From positions 11,130 through 75,129 of the forward strand of contig CAZREF010000010.1 in NCBI GenBank assembly GCA_964599245.1: a stretch of DNA of 64,000 nt, in the 5' to 3' direction. The position numbers were made by a program, and so were the translations under genes. The notes beneath the pieces were generated by a model. It made no database searches, was not told where the DNA came from, and saw only the letters and a program-made list of their open reading frames with translations. Of this stretch, positions 867-8,996 are shown in pieces (the first letter of the stretch is position 1; each line of letters starts with the position of its first letter). Origin of the DNA: an uncultured Aeromicrobium sp. (GTDB lineage: Bacteria > Actinomycetota > Actinomycetes > Propionibacteriales > Nocardioidaceae).

Positions 867-2162
867 CTAACCGATCCGACCGAGGACCACATCCGCGGCC
901 ACCGCCCCACCGGCGGCCTCACCGGAGCCGACCTCCAGGGCCCCATCCAGCGCCTCGAGAGCGCGCTCGAACCGCTCCGGGGTGTCGGTGTGCAGCGTCA
1001 GCAGCGGTTCGCCCGCCCGCAGCCGGTCCCCGGGCTTCGCGTGGATCTCCACGCCCGCGCCCGCCTGGACCTGCTCCCCCGGCCCTGACCGACCGGCGCC
1101 GAGGCGCCAGGCGGCGACGCCGACGCCGAGGGCGTCCAGGCGCGTGAGCACGCCGTCCTGGGACGCCGTCACGACGTGGGTCTCGCGGGCGGTCGGGAGG
1201 GGTGCGTCCAGGTCGCCGCCCTGGGCGGAGATCATCCGCCGCCATGCGTCCATCGCGCGACCGTCGGCGAGGGCGTCCGCGGGGTCGACGTCGCCGCGCC
1301 CGACGGCCGCGAGCATCTCGCGCGCCAGGGCCAGGGTCAGGTCGACGACGTCCTGCGGACCGCCGCCGGCGAGCACCTCGACGGACTCGCGCACCTCGAG
1401 GGCGTTGCCCGCGGTGAGGCCGAGCGGCGTCGACATGTCCGTGAGGAGGGCGACCGTCGTGACCCCGGCGTCGGTCCCGAGCGCGACCATCGTCTCCGCC
1501 AGCTCGCGTGCCTGGTCCTCGTGCTTCATGAAGGCGCCCGACCCGACCTTCACGTCGAGCACGAGCGCGCCGGTGCCCTCGGCGATCTTCTTGCTCATGA
1601 TCGAGCTCGCGATGAGGGGGATCGCCTCGACGGTGCCGGTGACGTCGCGCAGGGCGTAGAGCTTCTTGTCGGCCGGGGCCAGGCCGCTGCCGGCCGCACA
1701 GATGACGGCACCGACGTCCTCGAGCTGCGCCAGCACCTCCTCGTTCGAGAGCGACGCGCGCCAGCCGGGGATCGACTCGAGCTTGTCGAGCGTGCCGCCG
1801 GTGTGTCCGAGGCCGCGCCCCGACAGCTGTGGCACGGCGACCCCGCACGCGGCGACGAGGGGGGCAAGCGGCAGGGTGATCTTGTCCCCGACGCCGCCGG
1901 TGGAGTGCTTGTCGGCCGTGGGGCGGCTGAGGGAGGAGAAGTCCATCCGCTCGCCGCTGGCGATCATGGCGGCCGTCCAGCGGGCGATCTCCTCGCGGTC
2001 CATGCCGTTGAGCAGGATCGCCATCGCGAGCGCCGACATCTGCTCGGGTGCCACCACCCCGCGGGTGTAGGCGTCGACGACCCAGTCGATCTGGGCGTCG
2101 CTCAGGCGGTGCCGGTCGCGCTTGGTGGCGATGACGGCGGGGGCGTCGAAGGGCTCGGTCAT
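867..2162 (-). CDS. deoA: thymidine/pyrimidine-nucleoside phosphorylase
   Basis: DKHSTGGVGDK, SGRGLGHTGGTLDKLESIPG, SSIMSKKIAEG signatures. Confidence 0.95.
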   Translation of the reverse strand: MTEPFDAPAVIATKRDRHRLSDAQIDWVVDAYTRGVVAPEQMSALAMAILLNGMDREEIARWTAAMIASGERMDFSSLSRPTADKHSTGGVGDKITLPLAPLVAACGVAVPQLSGRGLGHTGGTLDKLESIPGWRASLSNEEVLAQLEDVGAVICAAGSGLAPADKKLYALRDVTGTVEAIPLIASSIMSKKIAEGTGALVLDVKVGSGAFMKHEDQARELAETMVALGTDAGVTTVALLTDMSTPLGLTAGNALEVRESVEVLAGGGPQDVVDLTLALAREMLAAVGRGDVDPADALADGRAMDAWRRMISAQGGDLDAPLPTARETHVVTASQDGVLTRLDALGVGVAAWRLGAGRSGPGEQVQAGAGVEIHAKPGDRLRAGEPLLTLHTDTPERFERALEALDGALEVGSGEAAGGAVAADVVLGRIG

Positions 2163-3358
2163 GGCTGGCAGGTCACCTCGAGGGACTGGTAGCCGCGCAG
2201 CACCCAGGTGGGCCGCCGCGGGGCGACGCCGGTGAGCGCGAGGGTGGGGAATCGCTCGAGCAGCCGTCGGACCGTGATCTCGAGCTCGACGCGCGCGAGG
2301 GGCGCGCCCAGGCAGAAGTGCAGCCCCATGCCGAAGCCGACGTGGGGATTGGGGTCGCGGCCGACGTCGAAGGCGTCGGGGTGCTCGAAGACCTCGGGGT
2401 CGCGGTTGGCCGACCCCATGAGACAGGCGACGACGTCGCCGGCGTGGACCGTGGTTCCCGCGACCTCGACGTCGGCCGTGGCCGTGCGCTCGAACATCTG
2501 CAGCGGTGCGTCGAAGCGGATGAGCTCCTCCAACGCGGTCGCCGCACCGACCTCGCCGCTCGTGACGCGCCGCTGCTGGTCGGGGTGCGAGAGCAGCGCG
2601 TGCATTCCGTTGCCGAAGACGTTCACCGACGCCTCGTGCCCCGCGTTGAGCAGCAGGACGACGGTGGCGACCAGCTCGTCGTCGGAGAAGCCGACGGTGG
2701 AGTCGTCCTCCCGCTCGGCGATGAGGTCGCTGACGAGGTCCTCGCCCGGCTCCGCACGACGCAGGGCGACGACCTCGCGCACGTAGTCGGCGAACTCCCG
2801 GCTCGCGGTCACGGCGGCGGCCCGGACGTCGTCGCCCACGCCCTGCTCGTACATGTGGACGATCGCCTGCGACCAGTCACGCAGCCGGACGTGGTCGTCC
2901 CGCGGGACGCCGAGCAGGTCGGCGATGACGAAGACCGGCATCGGCTCGGCGTACCGGGCGAGCAGGTCGACCGGGCGCCCCGCACGCAGGTCGTCCTCCA
3001 GGTCGTCGAGCATCGCGTCGGCGAGGGTCTCGATGCGCGGACCCATCCGCTCGACGTGGCCGCGGGCGAACGCGCCGGCGAGCAGCCGACGCATGCGGGT
3101 GTGCTCGGGGGGCTCGTTCTCCATGAGCTGGTTGCGGTGGAGCGTGTTGAACGGCTCCATCTGCTCGGCCGGCTCCCAGTCCGTCCAGAGGCGCCCGAGC
3201 CGACGGTTGCGGAGCACCGCGCTCACCGAGCCGTGGGTGGTGGCGACCCAGCGCCCCTCCCCCGCCCGCAGCAGCGGCCCGGCGGCGCGCCACTCGGCCA
3301 GCAGCGGGTACGGGTCGTCGAGGAGCGCGGGATCGGTGAGGTCGGGGACGACCGTCAC
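2159..3358 (-). CDS. cytochrome P450
   Basis: EPPEHTRMRR, I-helix AGHEAS, ExxR (EELIR), heme motif FGMGLHFCLGAPLAR; 4-nt overlaps with both neighbours. Confidence 0.95.
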   Translation of the reverse strand: MTVVPDLTDPALLDDPYPLLAEWRAAGPLLRAGEGRWVATTHGSVSAVLRNRRLGRLWTDWEPAEQMEPFNTLHRNQLMENEPPEHTRMRRLLAGAFARGHVERMGPRIETLADAMLDDLEDDLRAGRPVDLLARYAEPMPVFVIADLLGVPRDDHVRLRDWSQAIVHMYEQGVGDDVRAAAVTASREFADYVREVVALRRAEPGEDLVSDLIAEREDDSTVGFSDDELVATVVLLLNAGHEASVNVFGNGMHALLSHPDQQRRVTSGEVGAATALEELIRFDAPLQMFERTATADVEVAGTTVHAGDVVACLMGSANRDPEVFEHPDAFDVGRDPNPHVGFGMGLHFCLGAPLARVELEITVRRLLERFPTLALTGVAPRRPTWVLRGYQSLEVTCQP

Positions 3359-3855
3359 TCCCCCCGCCCCTCTCCTGGGGCGGGGGCGTCCGCCACCTCG
3401 CCGGAGGCGAGACCATCGGCCCCCTCGCCGGAGGCGAGATCATCGGCACCGAAGGCGTCGGGCAGGACCTCGTCCATGGTCCGCACGCCCGAGGCCGTGA
3501 GCAGCTGCATGGTGGGGCCGCCGTTCTCCCACAGCAGCTGGCGGCACCGGCCGCACGGCATGAGCGGGCGCCCGCGGCCGTCGACGCAGGCGACGGCCAC
3601 GAGGCGCCCGCCGCCGGTGGCGTGCAGGGCCGAGACCATGCCGCACTCCGCGCAGAGGGCCACGCCGTACGCCGCGTTCTCGACGTTGCAGCCGAGCACC
3701 ACCCGGCCGTCGTCCACCAGCCCGGCCACACCGACCTTGTAGTGCGAGTACGGGGCGTAGGCCCGCTGCATGACCTCGGTCGCGTACCGGGTCAGCGCGT
3801 CCCAGTCGACGGGGTCGTCGGCCGTGCTGATGCCCAGCCCGAAGGAGCCCGCCAC
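3355..3855 (-). CDS. cdd: cytidine deaminase
   Basis: AYAPYS, GCNVENAAY, LCAECG and PCGRCRQ zinc motifs; start taken as the GTG overlapping the upstream TAG (start approximate). Confidence 0.92.
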   Translation of the reverse strand: MAGSFGLGISTADDPVDWDALTRYATEVMQRAYAPYSHYKVGVAGLVDDGRVVLGCNVENAAYGVALCAECGMVSALHATGGGRLVAVACVDGRGRPLMPCGRCRQLLWENGGPTMQLLTASGVRTMDEVLPDAFGADDLASGEGADGLASGEVADAPAPGEGRGE

Positions 3856-7873: not shown

Positions 7874-7909
7874 CGGTCCGGCCCCACGCTCGCGCGCAGG
7901 GCCGGACCG
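7874..7909 (-). terminator. intercistronic hairpin after the BMP gene (mRNA stabiliser or partial terminator)
   Basis: 11-bp inverted repeat CGGTCCGGCCC / GGGCCGGACCG. Confidence 0.55.
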
Positions 7910-7940
7910 CGTCAAGGACCGCGTCGGTCCCTGGCGTCCC

Positions 7941-8996
7941 TCACTCGCTGGGGACGGTGATCGTGCCGTCGACGATCTGCTTCTTGTAGTCGTCGAGCTG
8001 GTCGGCGATGTCGTCGACCTGGCCGCCCGTCTTCGAGTAGCCGACGCCGTCGACCTTGAGGTCGTAGACGGTCGGGCCGGTCGGGGTGTCGCCGTCCGCG
8101 ACGCCCTGCAGGTACGCGAACACCGCGACGTCGATGTTCTTGAGCATCGAGGTCAGGATGACGTCGCGGACCGACTCGTCGGCCGTCAGCGCCTGGTCGG
8201 AGTCGACGCCGATCGCCTTCGCGCCGGCCTCCTTCGCCGCCTCGAACACACCGCCGCCGGAGCCGCCGGCCGCGTGGTAGACCACGTCGGCACCCTTGTC
8301 GTACATGCCCTGCGCCGCGGTCTTGCCCTTGGCCGGGTCGCCGAAGCCGCTGAAGTCCGGCGGCTGCGTCAGGTAGCGCGACTGGATCTCGATGTCGGGG
8401 TTGACGGCCTTGGCGCCCGCCTCGTAGCCGACCTCGAACTTCTTGATGAGCGGCGTCTCGACGCCACCGACGAAGCCGATGTTGCCCGACTCCGACTTCA
8501 GCGCCGCAGCGGCGCCGACGAGGAAGGAGCCCTGCTCCTCGGCGAAGAGGAGGTTGGCGATGTTGTCGCCCTCGACGCCGTCGTCGACGATCGCGAAGTT
8601 CACGTCGGGGTTGGCCTTGGCGATCTTGCCGACGGCCGCGGAGTAGGCGAAGCCCACCGCGACGACCGGGTCGTAGCCCGCGTCGACCAGCTGCTGCAGG
8701 CGGCCCTCACGCGCCGACTCCGGCTCGCCGTCCTGGGCCTCGGCGGTCTGGACCTCGAAGCCGAGCTCGCACTCGGCCTTGTCCAGGCCCTTGGCCGCGG
8801 AGTCGTTGAACGACTGGTCGCCACGTCCGCCGACGTCGAAGGCCATGCCGACCTTCGTGTCGATCTTCTCGACGCAGTTGTCGCCACTACCGGCGTTGTC
8901 GTCGCTGTCGTTGCTGCTGTTGTTGGCGCAGCCGGCACCAGCGAGCACGAGAGCGGCCACGCCGGCGACGGCGGTGACCTTCGTGAGTCGACGCAA
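7941..8996 (-). CDS. BMP family nucleoside-binding lipoprotein
   Basis: lipobox AGAGC; GGRGDQSFN, FAEEQGSFLVG, AIGVDSDQ, TSMLK; AAGGAGG RBS before a TTG start. Confidence 0.93.
   Translation of the reverse strand: MRRLTKVTAVAGVAALVLAGAGCANNSSNDSDDNAGSGDNCVEKIDTKVGMAFDVGGRGDQSFNDSAAKGLDKAECELGFEVQTAEAQDGEPESAREGRLQQLVDAGYDPVVAVGFAYSAAVGKIAKANPDVNFAIVDDGVEGDNIANLLFAEEQGSFLVGAAAALKSESGNIGFVGGVETPLIKKFEVGYEAGAKAVNPDIEIQSRYLTQPPDFSGFGDPAKGKTAAQGMYDKGADVVYHAAGGSGGGVFEAAKEAGAKAIGVDSDQALTADESVRDVILTSMLKNIDVAVFAYLQGVADGDTPTGPTVYDLKVDGVGYSKTGGQVDDIADQLDDYKKQIVDGTITVPSE

Follow-up and report, generated by a model that had tools for sequence, protein, structure and literature searches.

What is a cytochrome P450 doing in the middle of a nucleoside salvage operon? 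The question is raised by a 64,000-nucleotide stretch of DNA (the window) from an uncultured Aeromicrobium species (GenBank assembly GCA_964599245.1, contig CAZREF010000010.1, forward-strand positions 11,130 to 75,129), whose nearest named relatives are Aeromicrobium, at 85-89% identity. Here an intact P450 gene lies between cdd (cytidine deaminase) and deoA (pyrimidine nucleoside phosphorylase), behind an ATP-binding cassette (ABC) importer of the BMP type. A first-pass annotation of the window had described this arrangement correctly, including the 4-nucleotide overlap with each neighbour, and had suggested that the enzyme may oxidize or demethylate imported modified nucleosides and feed them to Cdd and DeoA.

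Both the enzyme family and the operon are already known. What is new is their recurrent coupling and the role proposed for it: in about six distinct actinobacterial lineages, the P450 gene is found among genes for nucleoside uptake and breakdown or immediately next to them. Such recurrent placement argues for a nucleoside-linked function, which we consider probable. No report of an association between P450s and nucleoside operons was found in the literature searched, which covered few subscription papers. The placement joins two questions: the native substrate of the CYP107P enzymes; and the way in which modified nucleosides are catabolized, a subject said to be largely unexplored (PMC12709175; papers are cited by PubMed Central identifier).

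Placement beside nucleoside genes

In the family Nocardioidaceae the order is cdd-P450-deoA. cdd lies directly upstream in all 30 loci from the genus and in 57 of 58 from other genera of the family (58 loci examined of 74 matches); deoA lies downstream, within the set distance, in 29/30 and 57/58, respectively. Two contig edges and one insertion account for the misses. An ortholog is present in 86 of 141 family genomes, and deoA in 136 of 141 (both tallies include the unpublished genomes G083 and G087, which are used for no statement about context; f, L, G, and C numbers are our handles for families, loci, genomes, and contigs). Of 40 family genomes checked that fall below the score cut-off, two carry frameshifted copies in the same slot, and 38 have no P450 there. 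Among these 38, cdd abuts deoA in 34, a 203-nucleotide gap separates them in one, and the order differs in three, so the cdd-deoA junction is no general landing site. PhyH as a replacement was not found in the two P450-free genomes checked.

The frameshifted copies (L231 and L232) reflect either ongoing decay or assembly error. Some genomes have extra genes between P450 and deoA (L146, positions 7183-8253; similar gaps in L014, L019, L022, L061, and L086), encoding a CAAX protease-like protein, ArsR with SRPBCC, or unknowns.

The second lineage is family f111, with genomes of 1.1-2.0 Mb and about 45-47% G+C in the loci read; we take it to resemble the freshwater Nanopelagicales. Directly upstream of its 29 orthologs (in 151 genomes) stands add (adenosine deaminase) in 23, cdd in two, a contig edge in two, and another context in two. 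Ribokinase or nucleoside hydrolase often follows, and the placement is kept through several rearrangements. Ferredoxin (PF13370) and ferredoxin reductase (PF14759) matches were not found in two f111 genomes, which have a short Fer4-domain open reading frame (ORF).

The third lineage, family f19, belongs to another class: six of its seven orthologs (in 95 genomes of the order) lie directly behind a BMP-ABC permease. In the fourth, genome G898, the P450 is inverted between cdd and deoA and is sister to a copy in the panC slot described below; the tree does not support G1177 as the sister of this inverted copy. In the fifth, family f115, the P450 is divergent from add (2/2). The sixth is a metagenome locus, L460, with the order permease-P450-cdd-deoA.

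Weaker cases include an ADA-family paralog upstream of the P450 in L118, L410, L451, and L463 (33% identical to add where measured, at three of the four); L445, which has a divergent BMP-ABC system upstream; YjjI/YjjW genes between P450 and bmp in G895; and permeases two genes away in L398. In a metagenome sample, nucleoside-type neighbours occur at 30 of 79 loci with a called P450 (one further locus had no gene call); 25 of the 30 come from the Nocardioidaceae and f111 branches.

Independence of the placements

Do these placements descend from one event? The nucleoside-linked state requires five changes when mapped on a tree of 86 rows and 11 on one of 96 rows. Approximately unbiased (AU) tests reject a single clade for Nocardioidaceae plus f111 (p=0.0014), plus L460 (7.7e-5), plus G898 (0.0036), and plus f19 (8e-43); for f111, f19, and f115 (1.9e-80); and for all six together (2.5e-47). 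One ancestral insertion that spread with the operon is thus rejected for the sets tested. The tests used quick LG+G4 trees of 29 and 35 chosen rows, with groups named after trees had been seen and with f111 rows of odd composition; f19 and f115 belong to the same larger branch, and a common origin for them is possible. Even if the nucleoside slot were ancestral and later rearranged, selection for keeping the P450 there would be implied.

Local shuffling from the panC region is no explanation, because the distance between panC and the nucleoside cluster is 173 kb to 2.8 Mb in three genomes with a nucleoside placement; in G732, where the P450 is next to panC, deoA is 1.0 Mb away. Among 18 control P450 loci (nine from f111, three from f57, and six from the window's own genome), none has an orthologous operon gene within 1.5-3 kb. 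A P450 hot spot at add in f111 was rejected, as other P450s in five f111 genomes sit elsewhere. The rough Poisson probability of five nucleoside landings besides the discovery case is 4e-7 to 9e-4, given a hand count of about 50 contexts and a probability of 0.3-1.4% for each landing, with operon expression and insertion bias ignored.

Identity of the P450

The hallmarks of the superfamily are present: ExxR (E278-R281) and the heme-ligating C349, both invariant in the alignment. The only Pfam match is p450, and the protein is not a PhyH-type 2-oxoglutarate/Fe(II) dioxygenase of the FJS/PHYHD1 kind. By sequence, the best match in the PDB is 8YHN, CYP107P2 of Streptomyces avermitilis (E=5.9e-103). 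The predicted structure (predicted local distance difference test score, pLDDT, of 94.5) has the same protein as its top Foldseek match, with 46% identity and a template modelling (TM) score of 0.92; prediction from the single sequence gave pLDDT 37.7 and was unusable.

By the rule that a family requires more than 40% and a subfamily more than 55% identity to a named member (as in PMC10741444), the enzyme is a CYP107 and falls below the line for CYP107P, with 46% identity to CYP107P2 and 45-47% to seven Streptomyces orthologs. It groups with the Streptomyces copies in a CYP107P-like clade (support 97-99), in which the I-helix LL(N/E)AGHEA(S/T)V is found in 209 of 210 loci. This supplies the family assignment that the first-pass annotation had called for. 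The clade is single-copy across Actinomycetota, from Streptomyces to streamlined genomes of 1.3 Mb. SCO3636 is listed as CYP107P (PMC6838473); the matches in PMC12416667 proved to be other subfamilies, CYP107PH-PN.

The first-pass annotation had also drawn attention to an I-helix resembling that of EryF. The motif NAGHEASVN (2647-2621, residues 238-246) is read directly from the sequence: Ala (A243) occupies the position of the conserved Thr, and the next residue is Ser (S244), the Thr-less pattern of EryF. The alanine is real, but it is no mark of the operon. Among the first 210 loci (not all independent genomes), AGHEASV occurs in 172, AGHEATV in 37, and AGHETTV in one, an outgroup; Streptomyces CYP107P2 reads NAGHEATVN. 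An operon-specific adaptation is therefore rejected: the change is common to the whole clade, including CYP107P2 and copies far from nucleoside genes, and holds nothing specific to the nucleoside operon.

Four polar residues, N238, S163, Y170, and E171, are invariant or nearly so in the clade; these, together with the clade-wide absence of the Thr, count in favour of the salvage role proposed below. No pocket column was seen that separates nucleoside-linked copies from their relatives, nor any convergent pocket signature. The P450 activity, whatever its nature, is thus probably older than the moves. In some branches (L304, L308, L310, and L096-L098) otherwise fixed pocket residues are altered, Asn238 to Met or Glu and MYE to MNE, which suggests changed substrates there.

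Other contexts

The shared pocket and the construction of the AU tests weigh against a nucleoside-linked function, as do the observations that follow. Of 401 genomes sampled from the phylum, 55 have an ortholog, as do 113 of 401 sampled from the class. In the first sample from outside the family, cdd or deoA lies within 6 kb in 0 of 42 loci; neighbours are a two-component system with purA (in Streptomyces, where 24 of 27 genomes sampled have an ortholog), ispD/ispF, groEL, and others. The first-pass annotation had proposed measuring how often homologs sit in cdd/deoA/BMP operons, and had regarded unrelated contexts as contrary evidence. The count gives about six lineages beside nucleoside genes and most lineages elsewhere. 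The salvage link it proposed is therefore upheld in part: copies from several tree branches occupy different nucleoside slots and do not form a single clade, whereas most homologs have unrelated neighbours.

Within the Nocardioidaceae, about 40% of genomes lack the P450 yet keep the operon. Most f111 genomes have no ortholog, and one control P450 (L381) adjoins a distant ADA-family gene. Four Janibacter/Knoellia copies, without nucleoside neighbours, nest inside the Aeromicrobium branch, which points to transfer between orders. These copies (L135, L139, L144, and L210) have 75-77% identity to the window P450; three of them are convergent with the gene for myo-inositol-1-phosphate synthase and are preceded by genes for a WXG100 protein and a biotin-lipoyl protein.

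Biochemistry within the clade points the same way. CYP107P2 gives type I spectra with monoterpenes (dissociation constants 16-51 μM), without terpene products, and its native substrate is unknown (PMC11214959). Its pocket is small and described as hydrophobic: L93, L243, A247, A251, L294, and F297 (PMC11214959), with the window counterparts M79, L235, A239, A243, L286, and F289. The first-pass annotation had held that binding of terpenes and not of nucleosides would count against it; monoterpene binding, with no turnover seen, goes part of that way. CYP107P2 also hydroxylates apigenin (review PMC8982256). CYP107P3 O-dealkylates 7-ethoxycoumarin (PMC11214959 and PMC8982256, which differ on its host species), and this activity speaks for the chemistry of the demethylation proposed below.

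Could the P450 be a passenger? It would then be a broad-specificity oxidase of small hydrophobics (terpenes, flavones, alkoxy-aromatics), often moving and surviving wherever a conserved, expressed operon can carry it, to which the nucleoside operon gives only a promoter. The terpene binding and flavone hydroxylation of CYP107P2 suit such an enzyme, and in S. venezuelae every single P450 deletion is viable, CYP107P10 included (PMC11610998). So do its roughly 50 contexts, most of them unrelated (groEL, ispDF, his genes, the two-component system, ino1), its frequent clean loss in the family, its transfer out of the operon into Janibacter/Knoellia, and the insertion of other genes between P450 and deoA in a few genomes. 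We nevertheless find this doubtful. Six placements by one small gene cluster are far above the uniform null; no other housekeeping context was seen to recur likewise across separate branches; streamlined genomes retain the P450 by add/cdd despite rearrangements; the control loci are 0/18 by these nucleoside genes; and the terpenes bound by CYP107P2 yield no products.

A different partner is suggested by the slot common to many class-level lineages: folK, NuoD-like, ydbS-like, ydbT-like, P450, S-adenosylmethionine-dependent methyltransferase, and panC. In the class search, 29 of the 57 genomes examined have a ydbT-like gene immediately upstream of the P450, a further point against a nucleoside role; in three of those 29 the two genes are fused in frame. 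The slot is found on both sides of the tree root, and so is probably ancestral. The P450 is joined to ydbT-like genes, in lineages without nearby nucleoside genes, by the same 4-nucleotide overlap seen at cdd and deoA; the latter overlaps therefore carry no functional weight, and were discarded as a sign of functional coupling. The YdbS/YdbT-like membrane pair might then be the real partner, in an envelope or detoxification role, with the nucleoside placements as later accidents. This seems very improbable, as Nocardioidaceae, f111, f19, Streptomyces, and others maintain the P450 with no ydbST next to it; in the window's own genome ydbT is on a different contig; and tight coupling also arises by simple insertion.

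Fusion as a rule was rejected, given three cases in 29 and a long ORF in G831 that is no clean fusion. In family f97 (L284, L287/L315, and L292) a YdbT-like membrane protein with bPH_2 domains is fused in frame to the P450 N-terminus. At L089 (7206-9510; family f2) the P450 is followed by genes for an FAD-binding oxidoreductase and a fatty acid desaturase; no other locus seen has a possible redox partner in cis.

Proposed function

If the function is nucleoside-linked, as we favour, what is the reaction? The proximity of an importer, deaminases, a phosphorylase, a hydrolase, and ribokinase would fit a P450 that unblocks substrates these proteins cannot use. Since the neighbours include both purine and pyrimidine enzymes, a modification of the sugar would suit. 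We tentatively propose that the P450 is a salvage demethylase that removes the 2'-O-methyl group from imported ribose-methylated nucleosides. The broader proposal, that the CYP107P-like clade demethylates 2'-O-methyl or otherwise alkylated nucleosides of environmental RNA, with a ribose hydroxyl replacing the catalytic Thr, has in our judgement a nearly even chance of being correct. 2'-O-methylation is among the most abundant RNA modifications (PMC12709175).

In the proposed pathway, the BMP-ABC system would import nucleosides from RNA decay, modified ones included. The P450 would hydroxylate the 2'-O-methyl carbon, and the hemiacetal would collapse to formaldehyde and the plain ribonucleoside; alternatively, the enzyme may act on 2-O-methylribose freed by a hydrolase. 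Cdd, Add, DeoA, nucleoside hydrolase, and ribokinase would then process the product. By analogy with the 5-OH of 6-deoxyerythronolide B in EryF, the vicinal 3'-OH of the substrate could stand in for the missing Thr in O2 activation. Electrons would come from a ferredoxin and reductase encoded elsewhere in the genome. PF13370 and PF14759 have no match in the window, in agreement with the first-pass annotation; matches to both lie on other contigs, one pair on contig C7 beside a different P450.

Two points count against the sugar in particular. Slots within one operon do not separate sugar from base modification, and a PhyH-family dioxygenase encoded in the same genome (contig C17, 30992-31621, outside the window) might already perform 2'-O-demethylation.

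The substrates might instead be base-alkylated nucleosides, chiefly adenosine derivatives (N6-isopentenyl, N6,N6-dimethyl, N1-methyl), which N-dealkylation or side-chain hydroxylation would render fit for adenosine deaminase. add is the direct neighbour in f111 (23/29) and f115 (2/2), more distant ADA-family genes lie directly upstream in L118, L410, L451, and L463, S-adenosylhomocysteine hydrolase is upstream of the importer in two f19 loci, and a prenyl side chain would suit a monoterpene-binding pocket. We think this unlikely: the P450s of Nocardioidaceae, G898, and L460 adjoin cdd, deoA, or a permease gene; an ADA-family neighbour is found at one control P450 as well; and a base substituent would offer no obvious hydroxyl to replace the Thr.

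Repair or detoxification of other nucleoside-like compounds, imported or internal (nucleoside antibiotics or 5'-deoxyadenosine, for example), appears improbable. In its favour, f19 and L445 lack catabolic genes at the locus and have the P450 coupled directly to the importer. Genes for the glycyl-radical protein YjjI and its activase adjoin the P450 in two f19 genomes and G895, and Escherichia coli yjjW-yjjI lie by deoCABD; however, this link amounts to three genomes in two lineages, and no candidate compound is singled out. Apart from this alternative, two distantly related lineages have genes for YjjI and its activase next to both the P450 and the BMP-ABC importer (L261, 4834-5586; L262, 2607-4636; L306, 4666-7102). 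Taken with the E. coli neighbourhood, this is a hint that the uncharacterised YjjI may have a role connected with nucleosides.

If 2'-O-demethylation or a related salvage reaction were confirmed, the P450 route would be a second, unrelated solution to the job done by PHYHD1-type dioxygenases. It would add a P450 to RNA-modification recycling and identify a function that even very small genomes retain. The CYP107P enzymes, long orphans, would then belong to nucleoside salvage and would not be terpene oxidases. Moreover, a whole Thr-less clade would exist inside CYP107, where a 2023 review knew EryF alone (PMC10741444).

The operon and its surroundings

The junctions overlap throughout from the ATPase gene to deoA (Table 1); the cdd stop and P450 start share GTGA (3355-3358), and the P450 stop and deoA start share ATGA (2159-2162). 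The importer gene set is complete, with a Bmp lipoprotein, a two-domain ATPase, and two BPD_transp_2 permeases, and its scores are below the cut-offs of the B6-transporter models. Family membership and the cdd/deoA neighbours suggest that it carries nucleosides. Solved relatives of the Bmp lipoprotein include TmpC (2FQW). Just beyond the window, the same contig encodes Add, a ribokinase together with a sugar ABC system, DeoC, and two proteins resembling aldehyde dehydrogenases, so the operon is part of a larger nucleoside and ribose island. The MaoC-like gene is 3' of deoA in Aeromicrobium and inverted or absent in most other genera; it is therefore probably a passenger. A scan for sigma-70 promoters found none, and Rfam had no match in window positions 1-12000 or in six related loci.

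Table 1. Features of the P450 operon and its flanks (positions in the window)
Feature	Position	Strand	Basis
M20 amidohydrolase, conserved upstream neighbour of bmp	9124..10287	-	domain/family profile matches and locus comparison
bmp, BMP/PnrA-like substrate-binding lipoprotein of ABC importer	7941..8996	-	Pfam Bmp, E 2e-65
ABC ATPase, two ABC domains; alternative upstream start at 7887 possible	6226..7803	-	profile matches
ABC permease 1, start overlapping ATPase stop	5111..6229	-	BPD_transp_2
ABC permease 2, start overlapping permease 1 stop	3855..5114	-	BPD_transp_2
cdd, cytidine deaminase; start codon inferred	3355..3855	-	NF004064, 178 bits (cut-off 74)
Cytochrome P450, CYP107P-like clade, 399 aa	2159..3358	-	Pfam PF00067
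I-helix motif NAGHEASVN, residues 238-246, A243 replacing usual Thr	2621..2647	-	sequence
Heme-ligating Cys349	2312..2314	-	invariant alignment column
deoA, thymidine/pyrimidine nucleoside phosphorylase	867..2162	-	NF004490, 629 bits (cut-off 269)
MaoC-like dehydratase	398..856	-	profile match and locus comparison
Second of two aldehyde dehydrogenase-like genes after deoC, 3' end	2..277	+

Across L001-L210, identities to the window form two groups for bmp and the permeases, at about 50-57% and about 75-90%, even among members of the genus, and those of cdd and deoA are constant at about 75-90%; this suggests that the importer module was exchanged in place. The genes upstream of the amidohydrolase (10337-12457, same strand) encode an SRPBCC/polyketide-cyclase protein, an MFS transporter, and a MarR regulator. 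sdhA/sdhB-like genes lie at 12877-15817.

Comparison with known systems

CYP107P2, which stands with CYP107P1, CYP107P3, and CYP107P10, has the nearest solved structure, and shares with the window P450 the LLNAGHEA motif and the MYE and PLQxFER segments. The B' region differs, being polar in the window enzyme (N71, H74, and Q77), as does the residue after the alanine (Ser244 in the window, Thr in CYP107P2). Streptomyces CYP107P copies lie behind a two-component system near purA, and not by nucleoside genes.

EryF (CYP107A1) likewise has Ala for the catalytic Thr, followed by Ser, and both enzymes have Glu nine residues past the heme Cys. Mapped by motif position, A245, S246, and E360 of EryF (PMC10741444) would correspond to A243, S244, and E358; on the same mapping, the EryF substrate contact Leu240 would match the nearly invariant Asn238 of the window clade. 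However, identity is 34%, EryF is a macrolide tailoring enzyme, and substrate assistance has been demonstrated for EryF only.

The reaction proposed here has a precedent in the 2-oxoglutarate dioxygenases FJS and PHYHD1, which demethylate free 2'-O-methyl nucleosides (PMC12709175). The oxidative loss of the methyl group is shown for those enzymes and conjectural for the window P450; their fold and cofactor are unrelated to those of P450s. The accessible text of that paper names hydrolases and PhyH-type dioxygenases as routes for free 2'-O-methyl nucleosides, and does not mention P450.

For O-demethylation of a polar sugar by a P450, ahead of ordinary catabolism, the model is CYP236A (P450ZoGa), which acts through polar residues of the B-C loop (signature Glu62, Arg66, Gln70, and Phe73; PMC6292453). 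It belongs, in contrast, to a marine 6-O-methyl-galactose pathway, and is absent from the top sequence and structure matches of the window P450. Finally, the actinobacterial salvage operon bmp-ABC-cdd-deoA-add has the same genes in the same order, but usually without a P450.

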